From: an uncultured Verrucomicrobiota bacterium
GTDB taxonomy: Bacteria > Verrucomicrobiota > Kiritimatiellia > CAIVKH01
Length of the DNA: 64,000 bases
Assembly: GCA_964388845.1 (NCBI GenBank)
Contig: CAYMCD010000004.1
Location: forward strand, 452 to 64,451
Direction of reading: 5' to 3'
Under the pieces are notes generated by a model. That model ran no database searches. It saw only the letters and a list, made by a program, of their open reading frames with translations, and was not told the origin of the DNA. Positions 1 to 50,961 of this stretch are shown here, piece after piece (positions within the stretch are counted from its first letter, which is position 1; every line of letters begins with the position of its first letter). Both the position numbers and the translations under genes were made by a program.

Positions 1-101
1 CCATTTTCTACAGTCGGGGTGAGTGGCAAGGTGCAATCGGTATCCGCGGGCGTGAGCTTGTCCGCGCGGAGGGGTGGGTGCGTCGTTGTGAGTGGGGGTT
101 T

Positions 102-150
102 TTACAGACGTTGGAACTCATGACGCGGTGTTATTACAGACGTTGGAAGT
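102..150 (+). repeat. Two direct copies of a conserved AT-rich ~20-bp element (core TTACAGACGTTGGAA at 102-116 and 135-149, 33-bp register) overlapping the 5' end of the giant gene
   Basis: Read directly: tttttACAGACGTTGGAAct (98-119) and atTACAGACGTTGGAAgttc (133-153). The same extended 18-20-mers recur three times at 24504-24566. The element is about 40% GC in a ~68% GC background. Copy 2 lies inside the predicted signal-peptide codons (YYRRWKF) if ATG-120 is the start. Confidence 0.75.
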
Positions 151-17776: not shown

Positions 17777-17998
17777 CCCGCCCTGTGGAGGACCGATAAT
17801 TCTTCGCGGCTTGACGCCTCCGCGCCGCCGGTCCACCGTTCTGCCGTGACTGCGGCGAGCGTAGCGTGTTCAATCCTGGCCCGCGTGGTGCGCGCTCCGC
17901 GTGCAACATGCGCCCGAAGGGCCCAAGCAGATGCGCCTTGCGCCACGCCGCGGGGTCGCCCCGAACCGACATTCCGCCTCATATGCGGACTGGTTCTC

Positions 17999-26963: not shown

Positions 26964-28373
26964 TCAGAAGGCGCCGTGGCCGGATGTCACCGCGCGGACG
27001 GTGCGGACCAGGATGACGATGTCCAGCCAGATGGACCAGTTGCGGACGTAATAGGTGTCCCATCGCGGCATGGCGGCGTGTCCGGCCTCGCTGCGGCCGG
27101 AAACCTGCCAGAGGCCGGTGATGCCGGGCCGGACGCGGTCGCGGAGCTGGCGGACGCGCTCCGGCAATTCCCTGTAGTGGTAGTGGGGCAGTGGCCGCGG
27201 TCCCACGAGCGACATATCGCCGCGGAAGACATTCACGAACTGGGGCAATTCGTCTAGCGAGGTGGCCCGCAGGAAGCGTCCGATCCTGGTGATGCGCGGA
27301 TCGTCGCGGAGTTTATAGTGCGTTTCCCACTCCGTGCGGAGCATCGCGTCCTCGGCGAGCCGCCGCTGCAGCAGGCGCTCGGCGTCCGGGTGCATCGTGC
27401 GGAATTTCAAGGCGTGGAACACGCGGCCCCGGTGGCCCATGCGTTCCTGTTTGAAAATGGGATGCGCGTGGTCCTCCAGCCAAACGAGCAGGCCCATCAA
27501 GAGGCAAAGGGGAATCCACAGGGGGGCGAGCCCGATGGCGACCGACAAATCCATGCCGCGTTTGACGAAGCGCGCCAGCGGATCCAGCAGGTTTCCGGGG
27601 ATTTCGATCCCGAGCAGTCCCATCAGGTCGCGCGGTTTGACCCAGAGCGTGGGCGATTCGGCGATGTCCGGGATCACGACCACGCGCCGGTAGTGAGCCA
27701 GGGGTCCGTCGAGCAGATCGCTGACGCCCTGGGGTGAAATGCCGGCCGTGGCGAGGAGGGCGACCGGGGCGGCGGCGGTCCGGTCCTGCGTGGTCCCCAG
27801 GACCGGGAGTCCGGCGGTTTCCGGAGCGGAGGCGTCCTGTTCGTCCAGGAAGACCCCGTGCGGCAGATATCCGAATCCCTTTTCCTCGCGCAACGCGTTG
27901 ACGACTCGGACCGCCGCGTGCTGTCGTCCGTAGACGACCGCCGGCACGCCCCATCGGCCCAGGCTCAACAGGATGCGTTTGATCTCGAGTCGGATGGCGG
28001 GGACCAGCGCGATGCTGAGGAGGAAGCCGAACGTCAGCGTGAAGCGGCTGGTGGCTTCGGCCTGTTTGCCCCAGAACAGCATCGCCGTGGTGCCGGCGAA
28101 AACCGCGGCGAGCAGCAGGATGGTGCGGCGCAGCTCCTCCACCGGACCGAGTCCCCAGCCCGGCAGCAGGCGCGCGACGTAGGCGCCGACGAGCCACGCC
28201 CCGAGCAGGTACCACATCCAGCTGGCCAGCATCGGCTCGCCTTTCCACGCGAGGCGGACGAAGCCGCCGAGCATCAGCGCAAACAAGAGGGCGGCGGCCT
28301 CCGCAACACCCAGCGCAACGGCGTTGCCGATGGCCCGTTTGGCGAAGGGATACGTATCGTCGTTTGTGTTCAA
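26964..28373 (-). CDS. Undecaprenyl-phosphate hexose-1-phosphate transferase (bacterial sugar transferase family, WbaP/EpsB-like priming enzyme)
   Basis: The C-terminal catalytic domain is present: ..FRTMHPDAE..ATSLDELPQFVNVFRGDMSLVGPRPL..GITGLWQVSGRS... It is preceded by TM helices. Confidence 0.9.
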   Translation of the reverse strand: MNTNDDTYPFAKRAIGNAVALGVAEAAALLFALMLGGFVRLAWKGEPMLASWMWYLLGAWLVGAYVARLLPGWGLGPVEELRRTILLLAAVFAGTTAMLFWGKQAEATSRFTLTFGFLLSIALVPAIRLEIKRILLSLGRWGVPAVVYGRQHAAVRVVNALREEKGFGYLPHGVFLDEQDASAPETAGLPVLGTTQDRTAAAPVALLATAGISPQGVSDLLDGPLAHYRRVVVIPDIAESPTLWVKPRDLMGLLGIEIPGNLLDPLARFVKRGMDLSVAIGLAPLWIPLCLLMGLLVWLEDHAHPIFKQERMGHRGRVFHALKFRTMHPDAERLLQRRLAEDAMLRTEWETHYKLRDDPRITRIGRFLRATSLDELPQFVNVFRGDMSLVGPRPLPHYHYRELPERVRQLRDRVRPGITGLWQVSGRSEAGHAAMPRWDTYYVRNWSIWLDIVILVRTVRAVTSGHGAF

Positions 28374-28385
28374 CGGGATTTGCGG

Positions 28386-29150
28386 CTAGCTGCGATCTGC
28401 ATCCTGCACTGCGATCAGAGGATACAGTTCCCTCACGAAGGCGTCGAGCCTGTCCAGCGGCGCGTCGCCGGGCTGGTCGTAGAGACCGACGACCGAAATG
28501 TAGGCCCACGGATACGCCCGGTTGTGGAGGATCCGATCCCAGGCCATCCAGAACATGCGCGCGGGATGCGAGGGGGTTTCACGTCCGCGCCCCGCGAACC
28601 AATAGGCGAAGAACATGCGGCCTGCGACGGCGCGGCCATCGGGGAGGCGGCGGGTTTGCTGGACGTCCAGCAGGGTGACGTCCAGCGGGGGAAACCCGGG
28701 CCGCTCGATCCGGCGCGTGCGGCTGGCGACAATCTCCGATCCCTCCGCCAGCAGGCAGACCTCGGGCCGGTGGATGCTCGATCGGTGTCGCCCGCTGAAC
28801 ACGATGGCTGCCTGCAGGGGCGTGCGATAGCCGTCGCGGCTGTACTGGCGTTTGTCCGCCACGGTGTCGCCCGGCAGCACCAATCGTTCAAAGGTGGTCA
28901 AGGCCTCCAGCGGCGCCCCGCAGTCGGGACACGCCTCGCCCGATCCGGGATCGGCGGCGAGAACGAGCCGTCCGTGTTCGGGATTCTGGCAGTAGAGCAC
29001 CCGCTTGCCCGTCCACGGCCCGATCCGATCCGGCAGGGTCCGGGAGACCGACGGGCGGTCAATGAAGGTGATGCGCGTGATGTCCGGCATCACGGACGCG
29101 AGCCCCAGCATCAACGCCGCGGAGAGGAAGAGGGCATGCGCCGGTTTCAT
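28386..29150 (-). CDS. EpsI-family exosortase-associated protein (copy 1)
   Basis: Signal peptide MKPAHALFLSAALMLGLASVMP; the EpsI signature ..SIHRPEVCL..; and a conserved C-terminal ..FFAYWFAGRGRETPSHPARMFWMAWDRILHNRAYPWAYISV... It is a paralogue of 49116-49868. Its start forms an ATGA overlap with the upstream exosortase stop (29147-29150). Confidence 0.8.
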   Translation of the reverse strand: MKPAHALFLSAALMLGLASVMPDITRITFIDRPSVSRTLPDRIGPWTGKRVLYCQNPEHGRLVLAADPGSGEACPDCGAPLEALTTFERLVLPGDTVADKRQYSRDGYRTPLQAAIVFSGRHRSSIHRPEVCLLAEGSEIVASRTRRIERPGFPPLDVTLLDVQQTRRLPDGRAVAGRMFFAYWFAGRGRETPSHPARMFWMAWDRILHNRAYPWAYISVVGLYDQPGDAPLDRLDAFVRELYPLIAVQDADRS

Positions 29151-30127
29151 GGCAGCCCCTCCCGGTCGCGCGACGGGTTCGCTTCGCCCGTCGGTTCCAT
29201 GAGCGAGCGCAGGCGCGCGCGAAAATCCACGGCATTCAGGCGGGCCAGCCGGACGGCCATCCACAGGAAGAGAAGGAATCCCGGGAGCAACACCAGGGCG
29301 GGAACTTGTTCGTCAATGCGCGCGGCGGAACCGGGCGAGGCGAATTCCGACCACAGGCAAAGCGCGACGCCGCGCGCGACCGTGGCGAGCAGGAACGCGA
29401 GCGGCGACAGGGCCACGACCAGCAGCCGGCGCGCCGGCTTGAGCCGCGAGAGTTCGGCCACGAACACGGCGAGCAGCATGCACGCGAAAAGGGCGTACAC
29501 GCTGCTGGTCGGGTCGGCGAGGTCAACCGCCCAGGCGCGGGTTTCGCTCTCCATCAGCACGGAGCCGACGGCCTGCACGCCGAGTCCCACGCCGGACGCA
29601 AGGACCGCCGCCGCGCGCGCGGCGGCGATGCGCATCGGGTTCAGCAATTGGTCAAAGAAGTTCAGGGGCATGGAAAGCAGCAGCACCAGCGTCGGATAGG
29701 CGAGTGCGCGCAGGAGCGCTCCTCCCCAGGCGAACGCCGGGATCGCCCACCACAACAGGAACAGGGCGAGCAGGCTCAACCGGGTTTGCTGCGCCTTCGC
29801 GCCGAACACGTGGAGGGCGAGTGCGGCGAGGACGATCGCGAGGGCGGGCCAGCAGACGCGCGACGGCGCGTGCGCCCAGGCCCCGCGCCTGCGCCACGCG
29901 AGCCAGGCTGCCAGGGGGACGGCCAGGAAGTTCAGGGAGTAGCTCGTCTGGTGCCAGTCCACCAGCCAGCGCCCGTACAGCCAGCGGAACGCGGAGGGGT
30001 TCTGCTTGTGCGCCAGATAGCCGATATCCGTGACGCCGTGGAACGCAAACAGGAACCACCACGCCGCCAGCGCAGACGCGGCGGCCAGCGCGGTGGGCCA
30101 TCGGCCGGATGGGAGAAGACCTCGCAT
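29147..30127 (-). CDS. Exosortase-family membrane protein (copy 1) with non-canonical residues at the catalytic positions (DPTSS and TVAR in place of DPCSG and NIAR)
   Basis: 326-aa polytopic protein sharing LGAKAQQTRLSL(L/F)..L(L/I)(W/I)WA(I/V)P and overall colinearity with the canonical exosortase at 48181-49146. Aligning the two by eye, ..FDVADPCSGIRSL../..AIVGNIARIVVV.. in copy 2 corresponds to ..AVDLADPTSSVYAL../..LLATVARGVAL.. in copy 1. Confidence 0.75.
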   Translation of the reverse strand: MRGLLPSGRWPTALAAASALAAWWFLFAFHGVTDIGYLAHKQNPSAFRWLYGRWLVDWHQTSYSLNFLAVPLAAWLAWRRRGAWAHAPSRVCWPALAIVLAALALHVFGAKAQQTRLSLLALFLLWWAIPAFAWGGALLRALAYPTLVLLLSMPLNFFDQLLNPMRIAAARAAAVLASGVGLGVQAVGSVLMESETRAWAVDLADPTSSVYALFACMLLAVFVAELSRLKPARRLLVVALSPLAFLLATVARGVALCLWSEFASPGSAARIDEQVPALVLLPGFLLFLWMAVRLARLNAVDFRARLRSLMEPTGEANPSRDREGLP

Positions 30128-30146
30128 GAGGGAGGCGGCCGACAGG

Positions 30147-31157
30147 CTATTTCACCAGACGCGCCCAGGAGGGCGGCAGGTTGCGGGGGACTTCGATCCC
30201 CTCGAAGGGTTTGCCCGAGCGGGCGCCGGTCTCTTTGACCCAGGCGGCCATTCGCGCGAGTCCCTCGTCCAGGGGGACGTTCCGGCAGAGGCCACCGAAA
30301 TGCCGCCGGACCTTCTCGTGTGACGAAAAAGCGTGGACGACCTCATTCCGGGCCGGCAGGTGCCGGACCTGTGGTTTCACGCCCATGGCTTTCGCCACGG
30401 ATTCGGCGAGCGTCAGGACGGAATAGGGCGTGTCCGCGCCGACGTTGAAGACCTCGTTGAGCGCCTCCGGTCGTTCGATCGCTTGCGCGATGACGGGCGC
30501 CACGTCATCTATGTAGCTGAACGCGCGCGTCTGGTTCCCGTCGCCAAAGACGGTCATGGGCAATCCCTGGAGGATCTGGTTCATGAAGATGCCGATGACG
30601 TTCCGGTAGGGATCGCCGATATTCTGCGATTCCCCGTAGACATTGTGCGGGCGGAAGACGATGTAGGGCAGGCCGAACATCTCGTGGGCCTCCTTGAGAT
30701 CCAGCTCCACCGCGAATTTTGCGATGCCGTAGGGATCCTCGGGCATCGGCGTGGCGTCCTCCGTCATCGGGGCCTGGTTTCGTCCGTAGACCGCGATGGA
30801 GGAGGTGAAGACGAAGCACTTGACCGTGCCGGTGTTGACGGACGCGTTGATGAGATTGACGCTGCCGATCAGGTTGTTCGAATAGTTGAACCGCTTGATG
30901 AAATGGCTCAGCCCCTCGGCCGCATAGGCGGCGAGATGAAACACGTACTCAAACCGGTGTTCGGCGAACAGGCGATCCACGAGCGCGTGGTCGAGGATGG
31001 AGCCCTGGACAAAGGAGGCGCCCCGGGGGACATTTTCGGTGAAACCGCCCGAGAGATCGTCCATCGCCACGACGCGATGGCCCCGTTCGAGCAGGCGCCG
31101 GGCGACATGCGATCCGATGAAGCCGGCCGCGCCGGTGACGAGGGTGGAGGGTTTCAT
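30147..31157 (-). CDS. NAD-dependent epimerase/dehydratase (UDP-sugar 4-epimerase-like SDR)
   Basis: Starts MKPSTLVTGAAGFIGSHVARRLLERGHRVVAMDDLSGG (Rossmann GxxGxxG). Has the catalytic YGIAK. The ORF-track N-terminal extension to 31847 is Arg/Pro-rich junk overlapping the next gene. Confidence 0.85.
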   Translation of the reverse strand: MKPSTLVTGAAGFIGSHVARRLLERGHRVVAMDDLSGGFTENVPRGASFVQGSILDHALVDRLFAEHRFEYVFHLAAYAAEGLSHFIKRFNYSNNLIGSVNLINASVNTGTVKCFVFTSSIAVYGRNQAPMTEDATPMPEDPYGIAKFAVELDLKEAHEMFGLPYIVFRPHNVYGESQNIGDPYRNVIGIFMNQILQGLPMTVFGDGNQTRAFSYIDDVAPVIAQAIERPEALNEVFNVGADTPYSVLTLAESVAKAMGVKPQVRHLPARNEVVHAFSSHEKVRRHFGGLCRNVPLDEGLARMAAWVKETGARSGKPFEGIEVPRNLPPSWARLVK

Positions 31158-31213
31158 GGGGATTCCTTGTTCAACGGCGGCATTAAACGCCGGGGCGGAC
31201 GAGCGAGGCAACG

Positions 31214-32797
31214 TCATTCTTGCGGTTGAGGCGCCCACAGGCGGTAGTGGCGGGACTCGGCGACCGGCGTGTAATGCTGCGCCAGCCAGGGGCCGTAACA
31301 GCGCATGAAGGGGATCCGGTGGCTGTCTCCCTGGGCCATCAGGACCCAGGGGCGGTCCTGGAACACAAATTCGGGCGGCGGGTGGTGGGCCTCGCTGAAG
31401 TTGAATCCGGGATACCAGAACGCCGCGCCGCCCCGGGGCGGCGGCCGTTGCAGGCCGAAGGAAAAGGCGTCGCTGTAGTCGAGTCCCTGGATGCGGGCCC
31501 CGGCGGGCGCGTGCGCGCGGACCAGCGCGAGGCCATCGTTGATCTGGTCCGCGACGGATTTCCGTTTCGCCGAAAGGCGGAAATCGGCCAGGGCGTGCGC
31601 CGCGAAAGCGGTTCCGGGCGGCGGCGGCCTGCGCGCCGATCCCCAGCTGCTCGCGAGCGACGCGGCATCGCCAAGAAACTGCGGCGCCCAGAGGATGGCC
31701 AGCAGGACCGCCGCCCACCTCTTTTCCGGACGGCGTCCGGCGACCCGCCGGTGAATGGCCATGAGGACGCCCAAGGCGACGGCGACGGCGAAGGCATAGT
31801 GCTGCCGTTGCTGGCTCGCGAAGGCGATGAGGACGGAGAGTCCCCACAATCCGAACAGCGCGAGGGCGACCCGCGCGCCCTGGGCGCGCGTGAGCGCGGT
31901 CCGCAGCAGCGCCCAGAGCCCCGCGAACACCAGCAGCGCGGGTGCGCCTTTGGCCGCGCTGCCCAGCAGGCGTCGCAGTTGCGAGTCTTCATAGCCGAGT
32001 CGAAAGGGGGCCGTGATGTCGCGGAGCCAGTCGCCGGCGTTCAGGCCGAGCAGGGCATGGAGCGCGGCGGCCGTCAGCGCGGCCCCGAGTGCCAGCGGCA
32101 ACAGACTGCGCGGACGCAGGCCGGACAGCAGCGCGAACCCCATCACGACACCCGCCGCCAATCCGTAGCTGAATTTCGTCAGCGCGAGCAGGGTGAGCAA
32201 CGCCCCGGCCGCCCCATGATCGAGGGCGGGTTCGGCCCCGCGTGCGTTCCGCGGCGGGACCAGCAGGATCCAGGCGAACACCGACAGCAGCCCCTCCGCA
32301 ATGCGGTTGTAGAGGAAGGCGTGGCTCCGGACATCGTAGGCTTCGCCGGCCTGGCGGGTGGCCATCACGAGGGCCGCGCAAAACAGCGCGGCGGCCAGGG
32401 CGAGCCCGGGCGTGGTCCGGCGCCGCAGCATGAAAAAGGAAGCCGCCGCGAGCAGCGCGCCGAGCACGGCCTGGCCGGCGGCGATGCCGCCCACGCAAGG
32501 GCCCTTGAGCTTCATGCCCAGCGCGGTCAGGTAGGCGAGAAACGTGCCCGTCGTGAGGGAAAAATCGGTGTGTGGGACCTGGCCGTGCAGGATGCGCCAC
32601 CCGCTGTTCAGCCAGAAACAGGTGTCCCAGACCGATAGATTCTGTTCTCCGCTTCCCGCCGTCCACAACGACGCGAAGGCCAGCGCGGCGGCCAGGAGCA
32701 GCGCCAGGGCCGCCGCGCGCCAGGAGACGAGCGGGGCTTGCTGGCGGTTATCGCCGTCTGCTACAACGTCCGTCTCTTCCTGGGAATCGAACAGCAT
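31214..32797 (-). CDS. Polytopic membrane protein of unknown function (about 10-12 TM segments); start uncertain
   Basis: ORF 31214-32842 is hydrophobic throughout (..ALLLAAALAFASLWTAG.., ..LLTLLALTKFSYGLAAGVVMGFALLSGL..). Any ATG start (32842, 32809 or 32797) overlaps or abuts the divergent GT1 start at 32796, so the true start may be an internal GTG or TTG. Confidence 0.5.
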   Translation of the reverse strand: MLFDSQEETDVVADGDNRQQAPLVSWRAAALALLLAAALAFASLWTAGSGEQNLSVWDTCFWLNSGWRILHGQVPHTDFSLTTGTFLAYLTALGMKLKGPCVGGIAAGQAVLGALLAAASFFMLRRRTTPGLALAAALFCAALVMATRQAGEAYDVRSHAFLYNRIAEGLLSVFAWILLVPPRNARGAEPALDHGAAGALLTLLALTKFSYGLAAGVVMGFALLSGLRPRSLLPLALGAALTAAALHALLGLNAGDWLRDITAPFRLGYEDSQLRRLLGSAAKGAPALLVFAGLWALLRTALTRAQGARVALALFGLWGLSVLIAFASQQRQHYAFAVAVALGVLMAIHRRVAGRRPEKRWAAVLLAILWAPQFLGDAASLASSWGSARRPPPPGTAFAAHALADFRLSAKRKSVADQINDGLALVRAHAPAGARIQGLDYSDAFSFGLQRPPPRGGAAFWYPGFNFSEAHHPPPEFVFQDRPWVLMAQGDSHRIPFMRCYGPWLAQHYTPVAESRHYRLWAPQPQE

Positions 32798-33938
32798 GGG
32801 TTTACGCATCGCAATCGCGGGGATTCGCGGCCTGCCGTCCACCTACAGCGGGTACGAAACCTTCATAGCCGAACTGGCGCCGCGCCTCGTCCGGCGCGGG
32901 CATCAGGTCACCGTGTACTGCCGGCGCGCCCTTTTTGCCGAACGCCCCGCCGAGTTTCAAGGCATGAAAATGGTGTATCTGCCGAGCCTGGAACACAAGG
33001 CTTTCAGCACGCTGTCGCACTCGCTCCTGGCGGTCGCGCACGCGACGATTTCCCGGCATGACCTGGTGTTTGTGGTGAATGCCGCCAACGGAATGTTCGG
33101 GATCATCCCCCGCATGGCGCGGAAACCCTCCGTGTTGAACGTGGACGGAATGGAATGGCTGCGGCCGAAGTGGAACCGGCTCGCCAAATGGGTGTTCCAC
33201 ACGTCCGCCAAACTCGGCGCCCGATTCTACGACGAAATCGTGACCGATGCCGACGAAATGCACCGGCTCTACGCGAAGGAATTCGGGATTGATTCGGAAT
33301 ACATCGCGTACGGCGCCAATATCGAAACCTCCACGACCCCGGCGATCCTCGAGACCTACGGGCTCTCGCCGCGCGAATACTACCTGATCGCGAGCCGGCT
33401 GATCCCGGACAACAACGCCGACCTGATCGTCGAGGCCTTCGTGAAATCGGGCGCCCGGCGCATCCTCGCCATCGCGGGCGGCGCGGACTACAAGGGCAAC
33501 ACGGTGGAGAAAACCTTCATAGACAAACTTAAGGCGCTCGGCGGCGACAGGGTGAAATTCCTGGGCCATGTCAATTCCACCGGCCATGTGAAGGAGTTGC
33601 ACTGCAACTGCTATGCCTACGTGCATGGGCATCAGTTCGGCGGGATCAATCCGTCCCTGCTCAAGGCGCTGGGATTCGGAAACATGATCCTGGCGCTGAA
33701 CACGCCGTTCAACGCGGAGGTGCTCGACGGCGGCCGCTACGGGATTCTGTACGAAAAGACCGTGGATGACCTGGCCGAAAAGATGGCTGCGATTGACCGC
33801 GACGAGGCGCGGGCGGAGGAATTCCGCGGGCGCGCGCCGGACCGCATCCGCGAACGGTTCACCTGGGACCAGATCACGGACCAGTACGAGCGCCTGTTCC
33901 AGTCTGTCGCGGACCGCCGGAAACGGTCAGCCCAGTAA
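32796..33938 (+). CDS. Glycosyltransferase family 1 (GT4-type)
   Basis: MGLRIAIAGIRGLPSTYSGYETFIAELAPRLVRRGHQVTVYCR.. with the C-terminal GT1 core ..ASRLIPDNNADLIVEAF..FGGINPSLLKALGFGNMILALNTPFNAEVL... The ORF-track start at 32544 includes a non-coding-looking leader. Confidence 0.85.
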   Translation: MGLRIAIAGIRGLPSTYSGYETFIAELAPRLVRRGHQVTVYCRRALFAERPAEFQGMKMVYLPSLEHKAFSTLSHSLLAVAHATISRHDLVFVVNAANGMFGIIPRMARKPSVLNVDGMEWLRPKWNRLAKWVFHTSAKLGARFYDEIVTDADEMHRLYAKEFGIDSEYIAYGANIETSTTPAILETYGLSPREYYLIASRLIPDNNADLIVEAFVKSGARRILAIAGGADYKGNTVEKTFIDKLKALGGDRVKFLGHVNSTGHVKELHCNCYAYVHGHQFGGINPSLLKALGFGNMILALNTPFNAEVLDGGRYGILYEKTVDDLAEKMAAIDRDEARAEEFRGRAPDRIRERFTWDQITDQYERLFQSVADRRKRSAQ

Positions 33939-35033
33939 TTCATGGAGGGCCGTCCGGATGCCGGGGCGGAGGTCCGCGTCATGGCAGATCCATCGTTCCT
34001 GCAGGCACCGGCCCATGCAGGGCGCCAGCGGGCAGGTGGTGCTCGCGACGGAGCGGCAGCGATCGCCATACGGCCCGAACCACTGGGGTTTGCTCGCGAG
34101 GAAGACCGCTACGACCGATTTCCCGAGCGCGGCCGCGATGTGGCTCACGCTGGTGTCGTTGCAGAGCACGCCGTCGGCCGCCCCGGTCAGGGCCATCAAC
34201 TGCTCCAGCGAATCGGGTTGGAATAGGGGGAACTCCCCGCGCCACGAGGAGGGCCACGTCTTTTCCGGGGCATTGACGAGGATGCACAGCGCGCCGCGCG
34301 CCGCGAGCTCCTCGCGCGCCACCGCGCCGAACTGGAGCAGGGACCAGCGCTGCGCGGGGACCCGCGCGCCGGGATGGACGAGCCAGATCGGCCTGCCCGC
34401 CGCCCGCGCCGCAGCGATGCGTTCCGCCAGGTCGGCGGGCAGCGGGATCGCCGGGGGCGTGAACCACGGCGCGGATGCATCCCATGCGAGATCGAGCGCG
34501 GCGGCGATTTGCCGCCAGTTGTCAACGTGATGCTGGTCCTCGCGGTCGCGGTTCAATGCCGTGGTCAGGATCGGTTCGCGCATGATCGTGCGCCCCGCGC
34601 GGTCCAGGATCCGTCCGATGAGCAGCTGGCGGCGGCGCCAGGGCAGGTGGGGGGCGTAATAGTTGGTCCCCGACATGGAAAATCCGACGCGCCGGGGGAC
34701 GCGGGCGAGGGCCATCAGGCCGTGGACCCGCGTGTCCGCCCAGACGGACACCGCCACGTCCGCCCGCACGTCGCGCAGATTGCGGATCAACGTTTTCCAG
34801 CCCGCGCGGAACCACGACGGCCGGGTCTGCAGCGTGCCGGGCTCCAGCCAGGGCGGCTGCCAGGCGAGGATGCGCTCCGCCGGCAGGGCGAGGCGGAAAA
34901 TCCGCGCCACGCCCGGCGCGCACACGACATGCACCTCGTAGCGGGCGGCCGCGGCCCGGATGAACGGGAGGCTCATGACCGCGTCGCCGAGCATGCGCTG
35001 TTCGAACACCAGAAGTCGCGTGGGACCGTTCAT
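33927..35033 (-). CDS. Glycosyltransferase family 9 (heptosyltransferase-like)
   Basis: MNGPTRLLVFEQRMLGDAVMSLPFIRAAAARYEVHVVCAP.. and a C-terminal ..GAADGVLCNDTSVSHIAAALGKSVVAVF.., typical GT9 motifs. ATGA overlap with the upstream gene stop (35030-35033). Its 3' end overlaps the convergent GT1 gene by 12 nt. Confidence 0.75.
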   Translation of the reverse strand: MNGPTRLLVFEQRMLGDAVMSLPFIRAAAARYEVHVVCAPGVARIFRLALPAERILAWQPPWLEPGTLQTRPSWFRAGWKTLIRNLRDVRADVAVSVWADTRVHGLMALARVPRRVGFSMSGTNYYAPHLPWRRRQLLIGRILDRAGRTIMREPILTTALNRDREDQHHVDNWRQIAAALDLAWDASAPWFTPPAIPLPADLAERIAAARAAGRPIWLVHPGARVPAQRWSLLQFGAVAREELAARGALCILVNAPEKTWPSSWRGEFPLFQPDSLEQLMALTGAADGVLCNDTSVSHIAAALGKSVVAVFLASKPQWFGPYGDRCRSVASTTCPLAPCMGRCLQERWICHDADLRPGIRTALHELLG

Positions 35034-37713: not shown

Positions 37714-37727
37714 GGCAGGCGGTGCGA

Positions 37728-41846: not shown

Positions 41847-41848
41847 GG

Positions 41849-42616: not shown

Positions 42617-44877
42617 GGGGTTGGCGGCGGTATGCTGAGCCCGAGACGGTTGCGCAGCAAGTCGAACCAAAGGGGGCCGGTGCTGTCCGGCGAATAGCTC
42701 GCCGCGCGCTGCCGGCCGTTGCGGCCCATCTCGGCGCGCAGTTCCGGGTGCTTCAACAAGTGGACCAGCCGCGCCGCCAGCTCGGTTGGATTGTCCGGTG
42801 GGACGAGATGGCCATCCTGTCCGTCGCGTATGACATCCATCAAGCCATCCACGCGCGATGCGACTATGGGGACGCCGGCCGCGCATCCTTCGACGGCCAC
42901 ATAGCCGAAACTTTCGTACATGCTGGTGATGACCAGCACGTCGGCCGCCGCCATATAGGCCCGGCTGTCCGTCTGGTAGCCGAGAAAACGACAGGTTGAC
43001 TCGATCCCCAACCGGTTCGACAGCGATTGAAGCGATGTTCGTTCCGGGCCGTCGCCGACAATCCAAAGTCGCGCCGCGGGATGTTGCGCGATTACGGAGG
43101 GCCAGGCGGCAAGCAACTGGTCAATGCATTTCTGGTCGCTGAGCCGGGCCACGGCGACCACGTGTTGGTGTTGGTCCGACCATCCATGGCGCAAGCGCAC
43201 CGCGGCGACCTCGTCCGGCGTGGGACTCGATTCCGGCGGAATGGTCGGCGGGATGCAGACGATTTTTTCAGCGGGCGCCAGGTGGCGGAGAACGTACTGG
43301 TGGCGTGAACTGTCGGTGAACGTCACCACGGCGTCCGCGAGGCGGCAGGGCAGCCATTCGCACAAACGGTTGCGGATGATGCGAAACCAATCCCAGTCCG
43401 TGTAAAATGCCGGCCATTGCGCGACGTACACGATGTGGCGCACACCCGCCAGACGACCCGCGAGGGCGCCGATGGGGCCGGCGGGCTGTCCGTGGACCAC
43501 GAGAACATCCGGACGCAACGCGCGGATGCGCCGCCAGAGCGCCGGACCGGCTCGGATCCATGCCCGGGGATGAATGGGCCGCATCTCCCGATAGGGGATG
43601 CCGTGCCGTTCGCAATACGTTGCGACAAGTCCGCGCGACCCGCCAATGGCGCTTTGTCGGCACCAGGGGACAAATTTACGAATCAGGCCGACAATGATCG
43701 GCGGCCCGCCACCGGGGCCGTCGTGGTGAACGAAATGGGTCATCAGCGGGCGGGTCTCGGGCAGGAGCGCGTTCAGCAGGACCGGCGCGATGCGCTCCGG
43801 TTGATAGGCCTCCGCCGTCTGGTGTCCGGCCTCGCCCATGCGGGCTCGTTCGGCGGGATCGTTGATCAGGCGCAGGAGGGCCTGCGCGAAGGCCTCCGTA
43901 TCGCCGGGCGGAAGGAGCAGGCCGTCGCGGCCGTTTGTAATGATGCTGCGCGGACCATCCACCTCGGTGGCGACGACGGGTTTGCGCGCGGCGAACGCTT
44001 CCAGCACCACATTTCCGAAGGTTTCGAAGAGGGCCGCATGGGCGAGGATGTCGCCGGCGGCGATGTATTCCGCGCCGGTGTACTGATCGTCGTTGATCCA
44101 CGTGACATGCGATTCGACGCCCAGCGCCCGGGCCAGCTCAACGAGCTGCGCCTTGAGATCGCCCTGGCCGACCATCCACAGATGGGCGTCGGGTCGCCGC
44201 TCGATCACGCGCTTCCAACCGGCCAGTAGCCAATCGCCTCGCTTCTGCCGCTCCATGCGGCCCACGCTGATGACGTTGCAAGCATGCCGGTCGAATTGAT
44301 GCGACTCCCGCAGGCGCCGCACGCGTTCGGGATCGGCCTGCGCGGACGCCGCGATCGCGTTGGGCACGACCCGCAGGCGCCCGGGCGGGGCCAGGCCGCG
44401 GATCAGGAACTGATAGCGGGTGCTTTCCGTGAGGCATATGACCCGGTGACTTAGCGCGCACGCCACGCGCTCCGCCGCGTGATTGCGCAGGCTGCGGACG
44501 AGGTCCCAGTTGGCGTAGAAAGCGGGCCACCGGGCAATGTAGACGCGCAGCGGAACGCGCGCCAACCACGCGGCCGCCGCGCCTACGGGCCCGGCCCACT
44601 GCCCGTGAAGCACAACCGTATCGGGCCGCGCCCGGCGCAAATGCCGCCAGCACTGCCACCAACCGCGCGGGAGCGCGCGTTGCCGGTCGAGCGCCACGCG
44701 GCGATGCGGAATCCCCGCGCGATCGCAATAGTCGGCTACGCGCCCGGCGCCGCCGTGCAGCACGGACTGATCGTAGTGCGCGGCCAGCGTCTCCAGTTGT
44801 GTGATGAGCGACTGGGGGCCCCCGCCGGGGCCGTCCAGATGGAGAATGTGGACCAGGGCGGGCCGCGATGCCGTCAT
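42613..44877 (-). CDS. Didomain glycosyltransferase: two tandem GT1 (GT4-type) modules in one 754-aa polypeptide
   Basis: Module 1 is MTASRPALVHILHLDGPGGGPQSLITQL...ETFGNVVLEAFAARKPVVATEVDGPRS... Module 2 is ..THFVHHDGPGGGPPIIVGLIRKF...ESFGYVAVEGCAAGVPIVASRVDGLMD... The modules are mutually homologous and there is no stop between them. ATGA overlap at 44874-44877. The ORF-track extension to 45969 was rejected. Confidence 0.8.
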   Translation of the reverse strand: MTASRPALVHILHLDGPGGGPQSLITQLETLAAHYDQSVLHGGAGRVADYCDRAGIPHRRVALDRQRALPRGWWQCWRHLRRARPDTVVLHGQWAGPVGAAAAWLARVPLRVYIARWPAFYANWDLVRSLRNHAAERVACALSHRVICLTESTRYQFLIRGLAPPGRLRVVPNAIAASAQADPERVRRLRESHQFDRHACNVISVGRMERQKRGDWLLAGWKRVIERRPDAHLWMVGQGDLKAQLVELARALGVESHVTWINDDQYTGAEYIAAGDILAHAALFETFGNVVLEAFAARKPVVATEVDGPRSIITNGRDGLLLPPGDTEAFAQALLRLINDPAERARMGEAGHQTAEAYQPERIAPVLLNALLPETRPLMTHFVHHDGPGGGPPIIVGLIRKFVPWCRQSAIGGSRGLVATYCERHGIPYREMRPIHPRAWIRAGPALWRRIRALRPDVLVVHGQPAGPIGALAGRLAGVRHIVYVAQWPAFYTDWDWFRIIRNRLCEWLPCRLADAVVTFTDSSRHQYVLRHLAPAEKIVCIPPTIPPESSPTPDEVAAVRLRHGWSDQHQHVVAVARLSDQKCIDQLLAAWPSVIAQHPAARLWIVGDGPERTSLQSLSNRLGIESTCRFLGYQTDSRAYMAAADVLVITSMYESFGYVAVEGCAAGVPIVASRVDGLMDVIRDGQDGHLVPPDNPTELAARLVHLLKHPELRAEMGRNGRQRAASYSPDSTGPLWFDLLRNRLGLSIPPPTP

Positions 44878-46061
44878 GCGGCGGCTCCCTTCGTGTGGAG
44901 GGCGAGCACAGTCAGGGCGCGCGCGCGAAACGCCGCCCCGCCGAATTGTTCGACGCGCCGGCGGCCCGCCGCGCCCATCAGCGCGCGGCGATCCGGCTGC
45001 GCGATCAGCGTGTCCAGCGCGTCGGCAAAGGCCTGGGTGTCTCCGGCGGGGGACTGGAGCCCTTCCACGCCGTGCGAAAAATTCATCCGCACGCCGTCCG
45101 CCTCCATGGCGACGAGCGGGCGGCCGGCGCCCATGGCCCAAAGCGACAGCCGGCTGTGCATTTCGTACAGGCTCGTCATGGCGACGATGTCCGCCGCGGC
45201 GGCGTAGTGCGCGAGCGGGCGCGTCGGCTGGAGAAGGGAGCAGCGCGAGAGGCCCAGGCGGCCCGCCCGCGCCCGGAGGGCCCGCTCCTCCGGGCCGATC
45301 CCCGCGATCGCGAGCCGGGCGGGGCAGCCGCGCTCCTCCACCAGCGCCCAGCCTTGCAGCAGCCAGTCGAGCCTCGCACGGGCGGCCAGATCGCCCGCGT
45401 ACACCACCAGCGTATCGCCCGGGCGGATACCGAGATCGCCGCGGATGGCGGCGCGCGCGGACTCGTCCGGCAACTCCTCTGCCGCGAAAGGTTTCGGCAA
45501 CAGGATGAACGTTTCCTCGGGCGCCCAGTCGCGCAGCAGGTACTGGTAGCGCGTGCCGTACGCGGGCACGATCACGTCGCGCGCGCCGGTCACAATCGCG
45601 TGTTGCCGCAGGAAGACGCGGGCGACATTCCACAGGGAGGTGTCCTGGTAGAGGTCGTCCGACAGGGCGACGTACGTCGTGTTGGAGAAGCCCGCCGCGC
45701 GCGCCGACGCCAGGCCGTGTCGCGCGGCCCGTGAGCCGATGAAGATCAACCAGTCGGGGCGCGCGTCGCGCAGGGCCCGGATCGCGCGACCGCGCGACGA
45801 CCGCGCGAAGGGCGCGCGGTCGTCGCATCGGACGCCGGCGAGGCGTTCGCGGTTTTCCGCGCGCTCGGCGGGCTCGATCCTGACGAGCGCGTCGGCGCGC
45901 GTCCCCCATGCGGCGCAGAGGTCCGCGGCATAGCGCGCGAATTCGCCCGAGGGATCGGATTCGACCCACAGTTCCACGCGCGGCGCAAGGGCGCGATGCG
46001 CGGCGTCAGACCGGGGCGGGATGGGCTGGGTGGAGTCGTGCACGTGCGTTATCCGGCCCAT
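44874..46061 (-). CDS. Glycosyltransferase family 1
   Basis: MGRITHVHDSTQPIPPRSDAAHRALAPRVELWVE.. and the GT1 core ..TSLYEMHSRLSLWAMGAGRPLVAMEADGVRM... ATG at 46061. The 250-aa ORF-track extension was rejected. Confidence 0.8.
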   Translation of the reverse strand: MGRITHVHDSTQPIPPRSDAAHRALAPRVELWVESDPSGEFARYAADLCAAWGTRADALVRIEPAERAENRERLAGVRCDDRAPFARSSRGRAIRALRDARPDWLIFIGSRAARHGLASARAAGFSNTTYVALSDDLYQDTSLWNVARVFLRQHAIVTGARDVIVPAYGTRYQYLLRDWAPEETFILLPKPFAAEELPDESARAAIRGDLGIRPGDTLVVYAGDLAARARLDWLLQGWALVEERGCPARLAIAGIGPEERALRARAGRLGLSRCSLLQPTRPLAHYAAAADIVAMTSLYEMHSRLSLWAMGAGRPLVAMEADGVRMNFSHGVEGLQSPAGDTQAFADALDTLIAQPDRRALMGAAGRRRVEQFGGAAFRARALTVLALHTKGAAA

Positions 46062-47476
46062 TCGCCTGCGATCCGGGCCCAACCCGGCGCGGGGCGAAAC
46101 GCAAGCGGGGCGCGTCCGGCGGCCGGCGCGAGGGGCGCGAGCAACAGGGGGCGCGAGCCCGATCGCCTGGCCTGCGCGACGATCGGGATGCGATCCGGAT
46201 TCAGGCCCATCAGGCGGGTCGCGCAGTCGTCGAGCGCCACGGGATTCAGGGAAGCCAGCAGCAGGCCTGTCCGGACGGGCATGGGGCGCAGGGGGCCGTC
46301 GCCGTCGCCGGCCACCACCCCGTCCAGCACATGCAGCGTCGCGCGCCGCGGCGCATCGTGCAGCCGGCCTTCGGCGTCCGCGTACAACAGCGCCCGGTTC
46401 AGATCGAGACAGGTTCGCCAGATGGTGTCGTTCCCGTGCCATCCGCCTTCGACATCCGTGGGATAGCTGCGAATCCGGTCGAGAAAGAGCAACTTGTACG
46501 CCAGCACACAGAAGCGCTGGTATATCCGGGGTTTGCCCAGCAGATGCATGTTCGCGAAGTCCAGCAGGGCCTCGAGAAGGGTCTTGGGAAGCGTGGCCAC
46601 TTCGTAGTTGTCCCCGCCCCGGTTGGCCGCGCCCTTGCGGTGGTGCGGCAGGTAATCCTTGTTGCCGTTGATGCCGACGAGGTTTTTCAACGCCAGCGTG
46701 ACGCCCGCCTTCTTGTGGGTCTTCATCTTCGGCGCGTTGATGACCAGGTCGGCCTCCAGGATGTCGCGGGCGACCAGGTAGCGATGCACGCCGGGCCGGT
46801 GGTTGCTCCACATCAGACGGGGGTCGTACATCGTGACGCGAAAGCGCCGCGCGTCACCCGAGAGGGCCTCCAGTTCGCTTTCCGCGCCTAGGTCGAGCAG
46901 CACGTAGTCCTCGACCGGGCGCAGTTCGCGGGCGAGGTCGGCCCGGTCTCGGCCCCGCCGCATCACCGTGCGCCGGAAATCCACGATTGCCAGCGGGCAT
47001 CCCCGTTTCTTCAGATCCGCCGCCACGCGGTCGAATCCCAGCGCCAGCAGGGCGTCGAAATCGCAAAGTTGCAGCGGCGCGTCGCCGACGACGATGCGGG
47101 CGGGCCGCGCCTTCCATGCGTAGTCAATCAGCGCCCGGAGCACGGATGCATGGGTGATCAGCTCGTCGGTCCCGCCGGCGCCCTCGTTGTGGTCCATCAC
47201 CCAATTGGGCTTGATGACGATACGTCCGCCGGGCGGCACGAGCGCGCCGATCGGGTTCCAGCCCGGTGTGTTGAACCGGTCGCGGTCGAGCCCGAGCGAG
47301 GCCAGCGCATTTCGCACAGCGGCATAGACCGGGTTCGGCGCCTGCCCGACCGGCCCGTCGTATTCGGGATAGGCCGTGCCGGGGTGATAGGGCGCCGCCT
47401 CCGGCGGCGGATATTCCGCGGGGGTCCGTTCAACGGCGACGGCCGTCATCGTTCGAATGTCCACTGGCGGCGGCAT
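46049..47476 (-). CDS. DUF362-like hypothetical protein (first gene of the minus-strand glycan operon)
   Basis: ..RIVIKPNWVMDHNEGAGGTDELITH..ADLVINAPKMKTHKKAGVTLALKNLVGINGNKDYLPHHR.. resembles DUF362 from memory. Start taken at ATG 47476 (MPPPVDIRT..); 47449 is an alternative. Upstream sequence overlaps the divergent gmhB-like gene. Confidence 0.45.
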   Translation of the reverse strand: MPPPVDIRTMTAVAVERTPAEYPPPEAAPYHPGTAYPEYDGPVGQAPNPVYAAVRNALASLGLDRDRFNTPGWNPIGALVPPGGRIVIKPNWVMDHNEGAGGTDELITHASVLRALIDYAWKARPARIVVGDAPLQLCDFDALLALGFDRVAADLKKRGCPLAIVDFRRTVMRRGRDRADLARELRPVEDYVLLDLGAESELEALSGDARRFRVTMYDPRLMWSNHRPGVHRYLVARDILEADLVINAPKMKTHKKAGVTLALKNLVGINGNKDYLPHHRKGAANRGGDNYEVATLPKTLLEALLDFANMHLLGKPRIYQRFCVLAYKLLFLDRIRSYPTDVEGGWHGNDTIWRTCLDLNRALLYADAEGRLHDAPRRATLHVLDGVVAGDGDGPLRPMPVRTGLLLASLNPVALDDCATRLMGLNPDRIPIVAQARRSGSRPLLLAPLAPAAGRAPLAFRPAPGWARIAGEWAG

Positions 47477-47587
47477 AGTGAGAGGCCTTCGGGGGAGTAA
47501 AGCATGGCCGGTGTATGGCATGAAGCGCAGAGTTGAGGCCCACCCGGGGGTTGCGTCCGTCCGCGAGGCCGTTATCCTGTGACCGCG

Positions 47588-48145
47588 ATGAAAGAGAAGG
47601 CCCGGACCCCCTGCGTGTTTTTCGACCGCGACGGGATCGTCAACCACCCGCCGGACGACGTGCGGCGCTACGTGCTGCACGAGGACGAATTCGAATTGCT
47701 CCCCGGCTTCGTCGAGTCGCTGCGGATCGTAATCGAGCGCGGCTACAAGGCCGTGATCGTGACCAACCAGGCGGGTGTGTCGCGGGGCCGCATGACGCAG
47801 GCCGATCTCGACCGGATTCATGAGAAATTGCGGCGGCTGTTGCGCGAGCGGGGGCTGGCGCTCCACGACATCCTCGTATGCACGTCGTTCGACGATGCCC
47901 ACCCCAACCGGAAGCCGAACCCCGGCATGTTGCTTGAAGCCGCCGCCCTGCATCGCCTCGATCTGTCGCGGTCGTGGATGATTGGCGACAACGAAAAAGA
48001 CGTGACAGCCGGGGTGCGCGCCGGCGTCCACAAGACGGTCAAGGTGAAGCGGTTGCCGACCCAGACCCACGCCGATTTTCGCGTGGATACCATGGCCCAG
48101 TTGCCGGACCTTCTGCACAGGCATCTGCCGGCCGTGGCGCATTGA
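47588..48145 (+). CDS. gmhB: D-glycero-D-manno-heptose-1,7-bisphosphate phosphatase-like HAD-IIIA hydrolase
   Basis: MKEKARTPCVFFDRDGIVNHPPDD.. (DxDG motif I); ..VIVTNQAGVSRG.. (motif II); ..KPNPGMLLEA..; ..IGDNEKDVTAGVRAGV.. (motif IV). A GTG at 47579 is an alternative start. Confidence 0.75.
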   Translation: MKEKARTPCVFFDRDGIVNHPPDDVRRYVLHEDEFELLPGFVESLRIVIERGYKAVIVTNQAGVSRGRMTQADLDRIHEKLRRLLRERGLALHDILVCTSFDDAHPNRKPNPGMLLEAAALHRLDLSRSWMIGDNEKDVTAGVRAGVHKTVKVKRLPTQTHADFRVDTMAQLPDLLHRHLPAVAH

Positions 48146-48180
48146 CCCCCACCGGCGCCGGTGTATTATATCCGCTGGAC

Positions 48181-49146
48181 ATGGACACGCGCATTTGGAG
48201 CGAGCGCTGGCGGCTGGCCGCCCTGACGCGGGACGATCTGATCCGGATCGGCCTGGTGTCGGCCATGCTGGCCCTGATTTTCATTCTGTTCCATTTCCAG
48301 GGAAATACGACCGACGTGCGGGCGTTCGGGCGCTCGGCCCTTGCGTGGATGATCGAGCGGTGGGATGACGACGACGGCACGGGCGACTACTCCCACGGCT
48401 GGCTGATTCCGATTGTCAGCGGATTCATCGTCTGGATCAAGCGCAGGGAATTGGCGGCCGCGCCGAAATCGGTCAGCGGCGCGGGGCTCGCCCTGTTGGT
48501 GACGGCCCTGTTCCTCCACTGGTTGGGCGCCAAGGCCCAGCAGACGAGGTTGTCCCTCTTCGGCCTGGTGCTGCTGATCTGGGCGGTTCCGTTCTATCTG
48601 CACGGCTGGCGGACGGCCAAAATGCTCATCTTCCCGTGCACCTATCTCATCTTCTGCATCCCGTTGAACTTCCTGGATTCCCTGACGTTCCCGCTGCGCA
48701 TTTTTGCCACGATCATCTCCACGTCCATGTTGAACGGCCTGGGCATCGCGGCGGAACGCTCCGGGTCGGCCATCTATTCCATGGCGGCGGGCGGTTTCAG
48801 TTTTGACGTGGCCGATCCGTGCAGCGGCATCCGCTCCCTGCTGGCGCTGACGGCCCTGACCGCGGTGTACGCCTATTTCACGCAGAAGACGCTGCTGCGC
48901 AAATGGCTCCTGTTCCTGTCGGCGATTCCCCTGGCGATCGTCGGCAACATCGCCCGCATCGTGGTCGTGGCCATTGTGGCCGAGGCGTTCGGGGAGCAAC
49001 TGGCGCTCGGCCTGTTCCACGATTATTCCGGCTACGTCGTCTTTTCAGTCGCGATCGGTCTCATGCTCGGGGTCGGCGCGATGCTCAGCACCGATTTCAG
49101 GGAGGCGCGCGAACGGTGGAAGCACGCACTGTTAAACCCCACCTGA
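48181..49146 (+). CDS. Exosortase (canonical; copy 2)
   Basis: Eight TM segments; ..LGAKAQQTRLSLFGLVLLIWAVP..; catalytic-region motifs ..FDVADPCSGIRSLLALT.. and ..LAIVGNIARIVVVAIVAEAF... Confidence 0.9.
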   Translation: MDTRIWSERWRLAALTRDDLIRIGLVSAMLALIFILFHFQGNTTDVRAFGRSALAWMIERWDDDDGTGDYSHGWLIPIVSGFIVWIKRRELAAAPKSVSGAGLALLVTALFLHWLGAKAQQTRLSLFGLVLLIWAVPFYLHGWRTAKMLIFPCTYLIFCIPLNFLDSLTFPLRIFATIISTSMLNGLGIAAERSGSAIYSMAAGGFSFDVADPCSGIRSLLALTALTAVYAYFTQKTLLRKWLLFLSAIPLAIVGNIARIVVVAIVAEAFGEQLALGLFHDYSGYVVFSVAIGLMLGVGAMLSTDFREARERWKHALLNPT

Positions 49147-49868
49147 TCGTCCTGGGTCTTCTGGCGCTGACCTCCCTCGCGCTGGCCTTCACCGTGGACG
49201 TCGGGGCCAGCGATGAGGCGGGGATCAAGGTTTTCCTGCCCGACCAGGTGGGCGAGTGGAAGGGCGACGAGCTGCGCTTTTGCCAGGCGCCGGCCTGCCA
49301 GGCCTCGATCTTCTTGAGCGACGTCAAGGAGGGCGGGCTTTGTCCGAAATGCGACGGTCCGCTGGCCACAATGTCCAAGGCCGAAAAGGATTTGTTGCCG
49401 TCGGACACCGAGGTCCTGAAGAAGGAATACCGGGACGCGCGCGGCCGGCGGATGTTTGCCTCGATCGTAATGAGCGGGCGCGAACGCGCGAGCATCCACC
49501 GCCCGCAGGTCTGCCTGGTGGGGCAGGGCAACGAGATCGTGCGGTCATCCGTGATCCAGGTCCCGCTGGATGGACGGGAGGATTTAGGCGTCATGCTGCT
49601 CGACATGCTCCGCCGCTGGCGCGCCCCGGATGGCCGGCAGAACGAATACAACACGTACTATGCGTATTGGTTCGTCGGCAAGGGACGGGAAACCCCGTAC
49701 CACTCGCTCCGCATGTTCTGGATGGCCTCCGACCGCGTCCTGCACAACCGCTCCCACCGGTGGGCCTATATCTCCGTTTCCGGGGACCGCGCCGCCGACG
49801 AGGAGGACTATCGCGGCGAGGTCACCGCCTTCATCCGCGAGCTGTACCCCGAGATGGTCATGCAGTAG
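49116..49868 (+). CDS. EpsI-family exosortase-associated protein (copy 2)
   Basis: GTG start at 49116 is in frame with ORF 48819-49868 and overlaps the exosortase end by 31 nt. Signal/anchor [25 protein letters not shown]; ..SIHRPQVCL..; ..[41 protein letters not shown]... Contains a Cys-rich insert (RFCQAPACQ...CPKCDGP). Confidence 0.8.
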
Positions 49869-50899: not shown

Positions 50900-50961
50900 C
50901 CGCCGTCGGATGGCGGTTGCGCCCGCCCGCCGCCGGGCCTACAATCGGCAGGCAAAGGCCC

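Follow-up and report, generated by a model that had tools for sequence, protein, structure and literature searches.

Exosortase genes usually lie in exopolysaccharide (EPS) loci, and the few to dozens of PEP-CTERM proteins that they serve are scattered through the genome. In the XrtA/PEP-CTERM EPS system (PMC1569441; TIGR03109, TIGR02595), the exosortase stands in an EPS-type locus with EpsI next after it and a polyprenyl-phosphate sugar transferase close by, the substrates being encoded at scattered sites; epsH was found “nearly always” among EPS genes, and the median number of PEP-CTERM proteins per genome was eight (PMC1569441). The founding pair, epsH-epsI of Methylobacillus sp. 12S (PMC1569441), consists of separate adjacent genes inside a polysaccharide cluster. 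The experimental basis for the catalytic Cys and Arg of this protein family comes from the archaeosortase ArtA of Haloferax volcanii, of which C173, R214 and R253 are cited as essential in PMC9263693, and Cys/Arg/His has been proposed as the catalytic triad of the exosortase family (Haft preprint 10.1101/2023.06.07.544157). The present analysis concerns a 64-kb stretch of DNA from an uncultured member of the Kiritimatiellia (contig CAYMCD010000004.1, positions 452 to 64,451; hereafter the window), in which two exosortase-family/EpsI pairs, Xrt1-EpsI1 and Xrt2-EpsI2, flank a glycan-assembly region, and in which Xrt1 is devoid of the catalytic Cys and His. The combined explanation that we consider moderately probable is that of a Wzx/Wzy-type surface-glycan island with a working Xrt2, whose clients would lie scattered elsewhere, and a catalytically disabled Xrt1.

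Of the subfamily models, that of XrtA gives both window proteins their highest score. Unlike the members of that system, Xrt2 (169.5 bits) and Xrt1 (60.1 bits) stay below the TIGR03109 cut-off of 208, and PrsK/PrsR/PrsT, the Wza/Wzc export genes and the other markers are all sub-threshold in the window, as exemplified by TIGR03013 (147.8 vs a cut-off of 393). Two genes considered as PrsT-like XrtA regulators (17846-18748 and 18922-20856) were rejected, their matches being generic TPR ones of 21-24 bits vs 312. Since both proteins fall below the cut-off and the window has no Prs regulators, they are not members of the XrtA equivalog, even if the system works after the manner of the XrtA/PEP-CTERM EPS systems; the lineage, too, is a different one, and no literature report of such a system in the Kiritimatiellia was found. 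In contrast to the Methylobacillus pair, the pair in the window is duplicated, with one copy devoid of the catalytic Cys and His, and fused Cys-less forms occur in relatives (locus L057 and protein P0151). ArtA differs in being archaeal, in recognizing PGF-CTERM, in having no EpsI partner and in serving the lipid anchoring of S-layer proteins, and Xrt1 has no equivalent of its Cys173.

The window has ~66% G+C and many shadow open reading frames (ORFs), for which reason the genes were called by a codon-usage score; their products were scanned with Pfam and NCBIfam, and transmembrane (TM) helices were counted by a crude hydropathy scan. The exact Xrt1 and Xrt2 products both occur on one NCBI contig of 64,941 bp, of which the window is thus nearly the whole. 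The earlier note on this DNA had described two exosortase/EpsI pairs around a glycan region, and the gene calls and family scans reproduce that layout at the same coordinates, with Xrt1-EpsI1 on the minus strand (30127-28386) and Xrt2-EpsI2 on the plus strand (48181-49868). Each of the two exosortase-family proteins shows 6-7 helices in the hydropathy scan, which probably undercounts weaker ones, the family having ~8 TM helices.

Xrt2 (48181-49146, plus strand, 321 amino acids, aa) is a canonical exosortase, with scores well above the cut-offs of PF09721 (190.2 bits vs 25.7), TIGR02602 (171.5 vs 105.55) and TIGR04178 (78 vs 23), and its catalytic motifs DVADPCSGIR, NIAR and HDYSG are intact. 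Among its best 120 homologues, DVADPCSG[IL][RK] is found in at least 113, NIAR in at least 110 and HDYSG in 118. With 8000 candidates scored, 889 homologues were obtained at E≤1e-3, the named ones all being metagenome-assembled genomes (MAGs) of Kiritimatiellia or Verrucomicrobiota, and 38 Xrt2 loci were located in GTDB species representatives at 51-87% identity, mostly under the titles Kiritimatiellia, Kiritimatiellales, Pontiellaceae or Verrucomicrobiota, apart from several MAGs that bear odd labels. EpsI2 (49116-49868, plus strand) follows Xrt2 in almost every related locus whose sequence extends past Xrt2; it has one N-terminal TM helix and passes PF11984 (55.4 bits vs a cut-off of 26.1), with TIGR02914 at 30.1, below its cut-off of 42.8.

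The order on the plus strand is a HAD-family (GmhB-like) phosphatase (47579-48145; PF13242, PF00702, PF08645), Xrt2, EpsI2, an epimerase/dehydratase and an FHA-domain protein (together 49928-51495; PF01370 and PF16363 for the former, PF00498 for the latter), next to which gyrA and gyrB lie on the minus strand. Close relatives keep the order DUF362-HAD-Xrt2-EpsI2-epimerase-FHA-gyrA-gyrB-efp, and it is the glycosyltransferase block upstream that changes. The phosphatase, a conserved upstream neighbour, adjoins Xrt2 in L001-L012, the order Xrt2-EpsI2-epimerase-FHA is seen in ~18 loci (L001-L016, L029 and L040), and gyrA follows the FHA gene in L001-L005 and L007-L010. The FHA protein itself (50962-51495, plus strand), directly after Xrt2-EpsI2-epimerase and kept across much of the class, hints at a phospho-threonine-dependent regulation of the Xrt2 module; the window showed no gene for a kinase. 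The DUF362 protein (46049-47449, minus strand, 466 aa, with a weak match to the Npun_F2552 family) recurs beside both Xrt2-type and Xrt1-type modules in differing glycan contexts (L045:3266-4627; L057:~3814-5043).

Xrt1 (29147-30127, minus strand), 34% identical to Xrt2, passes PF09721 (73.9 bits) and TIGR04178 (25.2, cut-off 23) and fails TIGR02602 (48.4 vs 105.55). The near-invariant, putatively catalytic Cys, Arg and His are present in Xrt2 and are not all present in Xrt1. In the nucleophile region, FDVADPCSGIRSL of Xrt2 is replaced by VDLADPTSSVYAL in Xrt1, and DLADPTSSVYAL stands at the place of DVADPCSGIRSL of Xrt2. The Cys (Cys214 in Xrt2) has become Thr207, a Thr that is invariant in 7 of 7 database members of the Xrt1 family and in L056; the Arg that follows the Cys is Tyr or Phe in the family, the second Arg (Arg252) is kept, and E, Q, D, D, A, A and A stand in the column of the His. 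P0124, a member of the family, is wholly devoid of cysteine.

The immediate Xrt1 family is rare: a word-based search of 5.8 billion proteins returned only seven homologues. A metagenome scan with the Xrt1 alignment gave only two loci. A profile search with Xrt1 over 1.84 billion cluster representatives gave 3058 exosortase-family matches, the best 150 of which were aligned for their catalytic residues: Cys and His are both kept in 93 of these 150 representatives, Cys only in 26, His only in one and neither in 30. The nine best non-self matches are all without the Cys, carrying S, T, T, R, S, A, P, A and F at its position. Most Cys-less sequences have another of their kind as nearest neighbour, and their nearest Cys-bearing relatives are the Xrt2-type proteins of Kiritimatiellia; two of them are NCBI records titled 'exosortase/archaeosortase family protein [Kiritimatiellia bacterium]'. 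It is possible, though we put this forward only tentatively, that the Kiritimatiellia hold at least 30 clusters (at 50% identity) of dead exosortase paralogues, each paired or fused with EpsI, that at least one lineage of them is locked to a cassette of a phosphoglycosyl transferase and a TIGR03790-family protein, and that the fold has been re-used non-proteolytically in surface-glycan assembly.

That cassette is a tight operon on the minus strand, in the order NAD-dependent sugar epimerase/dehydratase (30147-31157; PF01370, 190.6 bits), Xrt1, EpsI1, WbaP-type phosphoglycosyl transferase and TIGR03790-family secreted protein. EpsI1 (28386-29150, 254 aa), an EpsI/DUF3485 paralogue whose first 4 nt coincide with the last 4 of Xrt1, passes PF11984 at 50.4 bits and stays below the TIGR02914 cut-off at 32.9, has one N-terminal TM helix as a membrane anchor and is ~40-44% identical to the Xrt2-linked EpsI proteins of related loci (tblastn); like EpsI1, EpsI2 overlaps or abuts the exosortase-family gene that precedes it. 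The initiating transferase of the WbaP type, a polyprenyl-phosphate hexose-1-phosphate transferase (26964-28373; PF02397, 200 bits), exceeds the cut-off of TIGR03025 (336.8 vs 295.55) and falls slightly short of that of TIGR03022 (388 vs 403). The last gene of the cassette (24585-26960, 791 aa) matches TIGR03790 at 82.3 bits (cut-off 67) in two stretches within its N-terminal ~350 residues; the protein begins with a signal-like helix and lacks a TM helix at its C-terminus. It gave no Pfam match at E≤5 and no match at E≤1 in a profile search of PDB sequences, its single-sequence AlphaFold2 model was unusable (predicted local distance difference test, pLDDT, 34.7), and no literature report on TIGR03790 was found. 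In their periplasmic domains EpsI1 and EpsI2 have in common a cysteine pattern, C-x19-C-P-x-C (YCQNPEHG...ACPDCGAPL and FCQAPACQ...LCPKCDGPL), which, judged from the two window paralogues, could be a zinc-ribbon-like or disulfide element, and both carry an HRPxVCL motif.

The cassette from the epimerase to the TIGR03790 gene recurs in L043, L045, L046 and L056, in all of which the epimerase (82-91% identity) is directly upstream of the Xrt1 orthologue; the surroundings in L045 and L046 are quite different and include heparinase II/III-like, GDSL, CapK-like, AlgX and WecG genes. L043, the closest relative, is a 113-kb contig that also bears an Xrt2 orthologue, and its comparison with the window gives 91% identity for Xrt2 and for the epimerase, 87% for WbaP and 68% for Xrt1, which makes the last the fastest-evolving gene of its operon and points to relaxed constraint on it. 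The fused Cys-less Xrt-EpsI protein of L057 (568 aa), with Arg at the Cys position, has the phosphoglycosyl transferase and TIGR03790 genes of the cassette in its vicinity; P0151, too, is a fused Cys-less form. The TIGR03790 orthologue follows the phosphoglycosyl transferase in L043, L045, L057 and L013, and in L013 these two genes directly precede a canonical Xrt2-type gene, an arrangement that suggests an ancestral single-exosortase state from which the Xrt1 module was duplicated.

With regard to the substrates, the earlier note had seen no PEP-CTERM tail in the large secreted proteins of the window, which is confirmed here and extended to all six frames. Neither a TM helix nor a basic tail is present at the C-terminus of any of the four large secreted proteins, and no ORF of at least 60 codons in any frame combines P-E-P abutting a TM helix with a terminal basic cluster. 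Hydrophobic helices with basic tails at the ends of such ORFs amounted to shadow-frame noise across the 64 kb, with none of them convincing, and a lineage-specific hidden Markov model (HMM) made from Kiritimatiellia PEP-CTERM tails peaks at 4.9 bits in the window, where true members score 39-55 and noise stays below 10.

The suggestion that the substrates lie elsewhere gains indirect support, as Kiritimatiellia MAGs that carry Xrt2 orthologues do encode genuine PEP-CTERM tails. A tail scan of ~562 kb of non-redundant DNA surrounding Xrt genes from ~40 genomes found a single one, in P0129 (L040:7204-8145), a protein of a Kiritimatiellae MAG with a signal peptide and the C-terminal end AIPEPAVSMLIVLGGGLLLCARFTRRS, a tail that can be aligned with the PEP-CTERM models over its whole length. 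Its gene is on the same contig as an Xrt2 orthologue, 5 kb downstream of Xrt2-EpsI2-epimerase-FHA. A homologue search with P0129 yielded 16 relatives (a metagenome scan with the same query found none), and in the resulting alignment of 17 proteins (A1) P-E-P is invariant (17/17), with a short TM helix and then an R/K tail after it, the members being secreted proteins of ~255 aa that bear a signal peptide at the N-terminus and an end made of AAVPEP, a TM helix and RR. Two of them, P0143 and P0147, have a precomputed PF07589 match. The family also has an N-terminal motif, LNYWGTG...WNDGK...LAWGFRWDG. A second PEP-CTERM protein, unrelated to A1, is encoded at L050:1237-2196 and exceeds the Pfam cut-off (22.1 vs 20.7 bits).

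The A1 gene is always followed by a gene for a prepilin-type N-methylation protein (~250 aa, 53% identical among L040, L047 and L050), so that the module pairs a sorting-signal protein with a pseudopilin-like one; the latter has an apparent H-X9-DG-like motif (HFRH.GKA.V.FA.G) as judged by eye in alignment A3. The two-gene module is found at L040:6438-8145 (minus strand), L047:10001-11495 and L050:10001-11460, with equivalents in L051, L054 and L058, and because it is common to them the other A1 contigs can be tied to the same lineage. Its contexts differ, comprising an RND pump with PlsX/FabH, MetH, the ATP synthase operon and sulfatases, and the PEP-CTERM genes of the relatives mostly lie in housekeeping surroundings that have nothing to do with the exosortase locus. 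In ~660 kb of non-redundant DNA there were two untargeted finds, or ~1 per 330 kb and roughly 10-15 per genome, a figure that agrees with the median of eight given in PMC1569441. As relatives encode such tails elsewhere and only ~0.2 would be expected in the window from this density (~0.15-0.4 by either estimate), the lack of PEP-CTERM proteins in the window is unremarkable and matches chance expectation. Moreover, with one of the two 'exosortases' lacking its nucleophile, the expectation of two substrate sets falls.

Three other explanations have to be weighed, the first of which would make Xrt1 an active enzyme that employs Thr or Ser instead of Cys as its nucleophile and serves its own, unrecognised substrate class or sorting signal. 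It is the constancy of Thr/Ser in the immediate clade that keeps such a hydroxyl-nucleophile enzyme as a rival, since Thr is invariant in all eight close Xrt1 sequences, L056 included, and the four nearest clusters at 50% identity carry S, T, T and S; one conserved Arg (R252) is retained, and the gene is intact, well conserved and placed in an operon with its own EpsI. Yet the lost His has no conserved base in its place, the Arg beside the Cys has turned into Tyr or Phe, and slightly more distant relatives in the same phosphoglycosyl transferase/TIGR03790 context have Arg, Ala, Pro or Phe where the nucleophile should be. Loss of Cys and loss of His coincide in 30 of 31 cases, no candidate substrate with a TM helix and basic tail was found within 10 kb of Xrt1 at six loci, and Xrt1 evolves faster than its neighbours. 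We therefore regard an active Xrt1 as unlikely, and because the two losses are coupled and the nucleophile position varies freely outside the immediate clade, Xrt1 reads as a pseudo-enzyme. A decaying pseudogene was considered and rejected, the ORF being intact in at least eight genomes, with ~90 invariant columns and host-like codon usage. No description of a catalytically inactive exosortase without Cys and His was found in the literature, which makes such a paralogue, with its own EpsI and in a conserved phosphoglycosyl transferase cassette, a new element as far as the literature searched goes.

The other two explanations concern the substrates. If the exosortase system of this genome had very few or no protein substrates, Xrt2-EpsI2 would have a mainly polysaccharide-related role in the Kiritimatiellia, a proposal that accords with the finding of only one PEP-CTERM tail in the 562 kb centred on Xrt loci, with the housekeeping neighbourhood of Xrt2 and its conservation, unusually high for an exosortase (51-91%), and with our failure to find a literature report that joins Kiritimatiellia and PEP-CTERM or a relevant one on exosortase in Kiritimatiellia. 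The strict retention of the catalytic residues of Xrt2, however, argues for a protease/transpeptidase role, and both the A1 family, with its invariant PEP motif and physical linkage to Xrt2 in L040, and the second, unrelated PEP-CTERM protein in L050 speak against a system devoid of clients, so that this proposal appears improbable. The earlier note had pointed instead to a different C-terminal signal, a module common to the large secreted proteins at 16907-17776 and 56940-62495, both of which flank the exosortase locus, have a signal peptide and end in a TSP3 repeat followed by ~80 residues of a loosely similar, beta-rich strand pattern. This idea fell, since the module has no TM helix and no basic tail and thus lacks the tripartite architecture of known sortase-type signals. 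The two copies align weakly, at 24.6 bits, and only over the TSP3 calcium-binding repeat, and a C-terminal hydrophobic helix or basic cluster is missing from all four large secreted proteins. Enzymes of the exosortase family are embedded in the membrane, and the motif at which they act directly abuts a TM helix (Haft preprint 10.1101/2023.06.07.544157). Xrt2 is canonical and the class encodes ordinary PEP-CTERM tails; a sorting signal made of the TSP3/beta-sandwich C-terminus was rejected and is very improbable indeed. Several points nevertheless count against the explanation that we favour: in the immediate Xrt1 clade, as in the four clusters closest to it, only Thr or Ser occurs at the Cys position; the P0129 tail is slightly sub-threshold (Pfam 14-17 vs 20.7; TIGR02595 14.4 vs 16); the taxonomy of the contigs of the other A1 members is drawn from the shared two-gene module and a sulfatase-rich context; the estimate of PEP-CTERM density derives from two events; and the presence and number of such proteins in the source organism are extrapolated from its relatives.

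In the explanation that we favour, the island would be a Wzx/Wzy-type surface-polysaccharide locus with a variable middle and two unequal, conserved exosortase-family modules at its ends. Xrt2-EpsI2 represents a class-wide, vertically inherited family, syntenic with HAD, epimerase, FHA and gyrAB genes, in which Xrt2 is the enzyme presumed to cleave and re-anchor PEP-CTERM proteins, its clients probably being few and scattered through the genomes of the class, as exemplified by the ~255-aa A1 family. Xrt1-EpsI1 is a rare, fast-evolving duplicate tied to the initiating phosphoglycosyl transferase, and Xrt1 may no longer cleave proteins; more probably it takes part, without catalysis, in the initiation or assembly of the glycan as a membrane partner, or else binds helices of the PEP-CTERM type. 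From the sequence comparisons, a non-catalytic exosortase tied to glycan initiation is the most likely identity of Xrt1. Intramembrane proteases offer an analogy in the iRhoms, pseudo-enzyme paralogues whose polytopic fold is kept under selection after loss of the nucleophile and the general base; Xrt1, retained in a conserved gene context, is likened to them, fold and kingdom being unrelated.

The block between the modules (31214-47449, both strands), as characterized by Pfam, NCBIfam and TM counts, was largely described correctly by the earlier note, with the GT2 and GT9 glycosyltransferases, flippase, two methyltransferases, epimerase, gmhB-like gene, DUF362 gene and didomain glycosyltransferase (GT) all recovered; the count of five GT1 genes did not hold, the single-domain Glycos_transf_1 (GT4) genes between the pairs numbering four, plus one didomain GT4. 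It begins with a 7-TM protein (31214-32842, minus strand), which is followed by a GT4 on the plus strand (32796-33938), a GT9 (33927-35144, minus) and an 11-TM protein (35030-36508, minus) that is a Wzy/ligase-like candidate by topology and context; neither polytopic protein matched a Pfam or NCBIfam family, permissive thresholds included. All further genes are on the minus strand, namely two GT4 (36547-37731 and 37728-38540), a GT2 (38855-39793), a Wzx-like flippase (39784-41388), two methyltransferases (41166-41999 and 41849-42580), the didomain GT4 (42613-44877) and another GT4 (44874-45977), before the DUF362 gene closes the block. Among relatives (L001/L008, L043, L045) this block is replaced wholesale and the flanking modules are kept, which likely marks it as a hotspot of surface-glycan diversification resembling an O-antigen or capsule locus with conserved flanks. 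In L001, the GT2, Wzx and methyltransferase genes are replaced by a sulfatase gene and genes of unknown kind.

Two of the secreted proteins outside the island deserve mention in their own right. A giant ORF at 3-16910 (plus strand) of more than 5,600 aa is cut by the left window edge and has a G+C content at third codon positions (GC3) of 0.88; its last 1,636 residues have no significant Pfam domain, its last 636 no NCBIfam match, and no recognised kind of C-terminal anchor was seen in it. The small TSP3-repeat secreted protein follows directly, with overlapping stop and start codons. At 56940-62495 (plus strand) a secreted protein of 1,851 aa combines DUF11/CARDB, four Calx-beta domains, an endonuclease/exonuclease/phosphatase domain and a terminal TSP3 repeat with a weak match to the Amuc_1099 pilus-like family (21 bits vs a cut-off of 50); its gene is placed between gyrB and efp, a gap of no more than ~2 kb in the close relatives L001, L005 and L007-L009.

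Kiritimatiellia are abundant, barely cultured polysaccharide degraders. An exosortase/EpsI pair that is near-universal and highly conserved is seen here in the class, together with one or more conserved families of PEP-CTERM clients, of which no literature account was found, and the puzzle of the missing substrates, as first posed, turns out to be an ordinary one. Annotation pipelines name both genes of the window 'exosortase/archaeosortase family protein', and because of this identical annotation counts of exosortases over-predict the number of sorting signals in this lineage. Pseudo-enzymes often expose the non-catalytic half of a mechanism, and to our knowledge the acceptor that receives exosortase clients is not yet known. 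If Xrt1 is indeed non-catalytic, the dead paralogue might hold a lipid-linked acceptor or a PEP-CTERM helix, or might gate the phosphoglycosyl transferase, and the re-used fold would hint at the acceptor-binding half of true exosortases. Hard-wired as it is to a phosphoglycosyl transferase, the paralogue offers a testable lead, namely that the exosortase acceptor may be a lipid-linked glycan.

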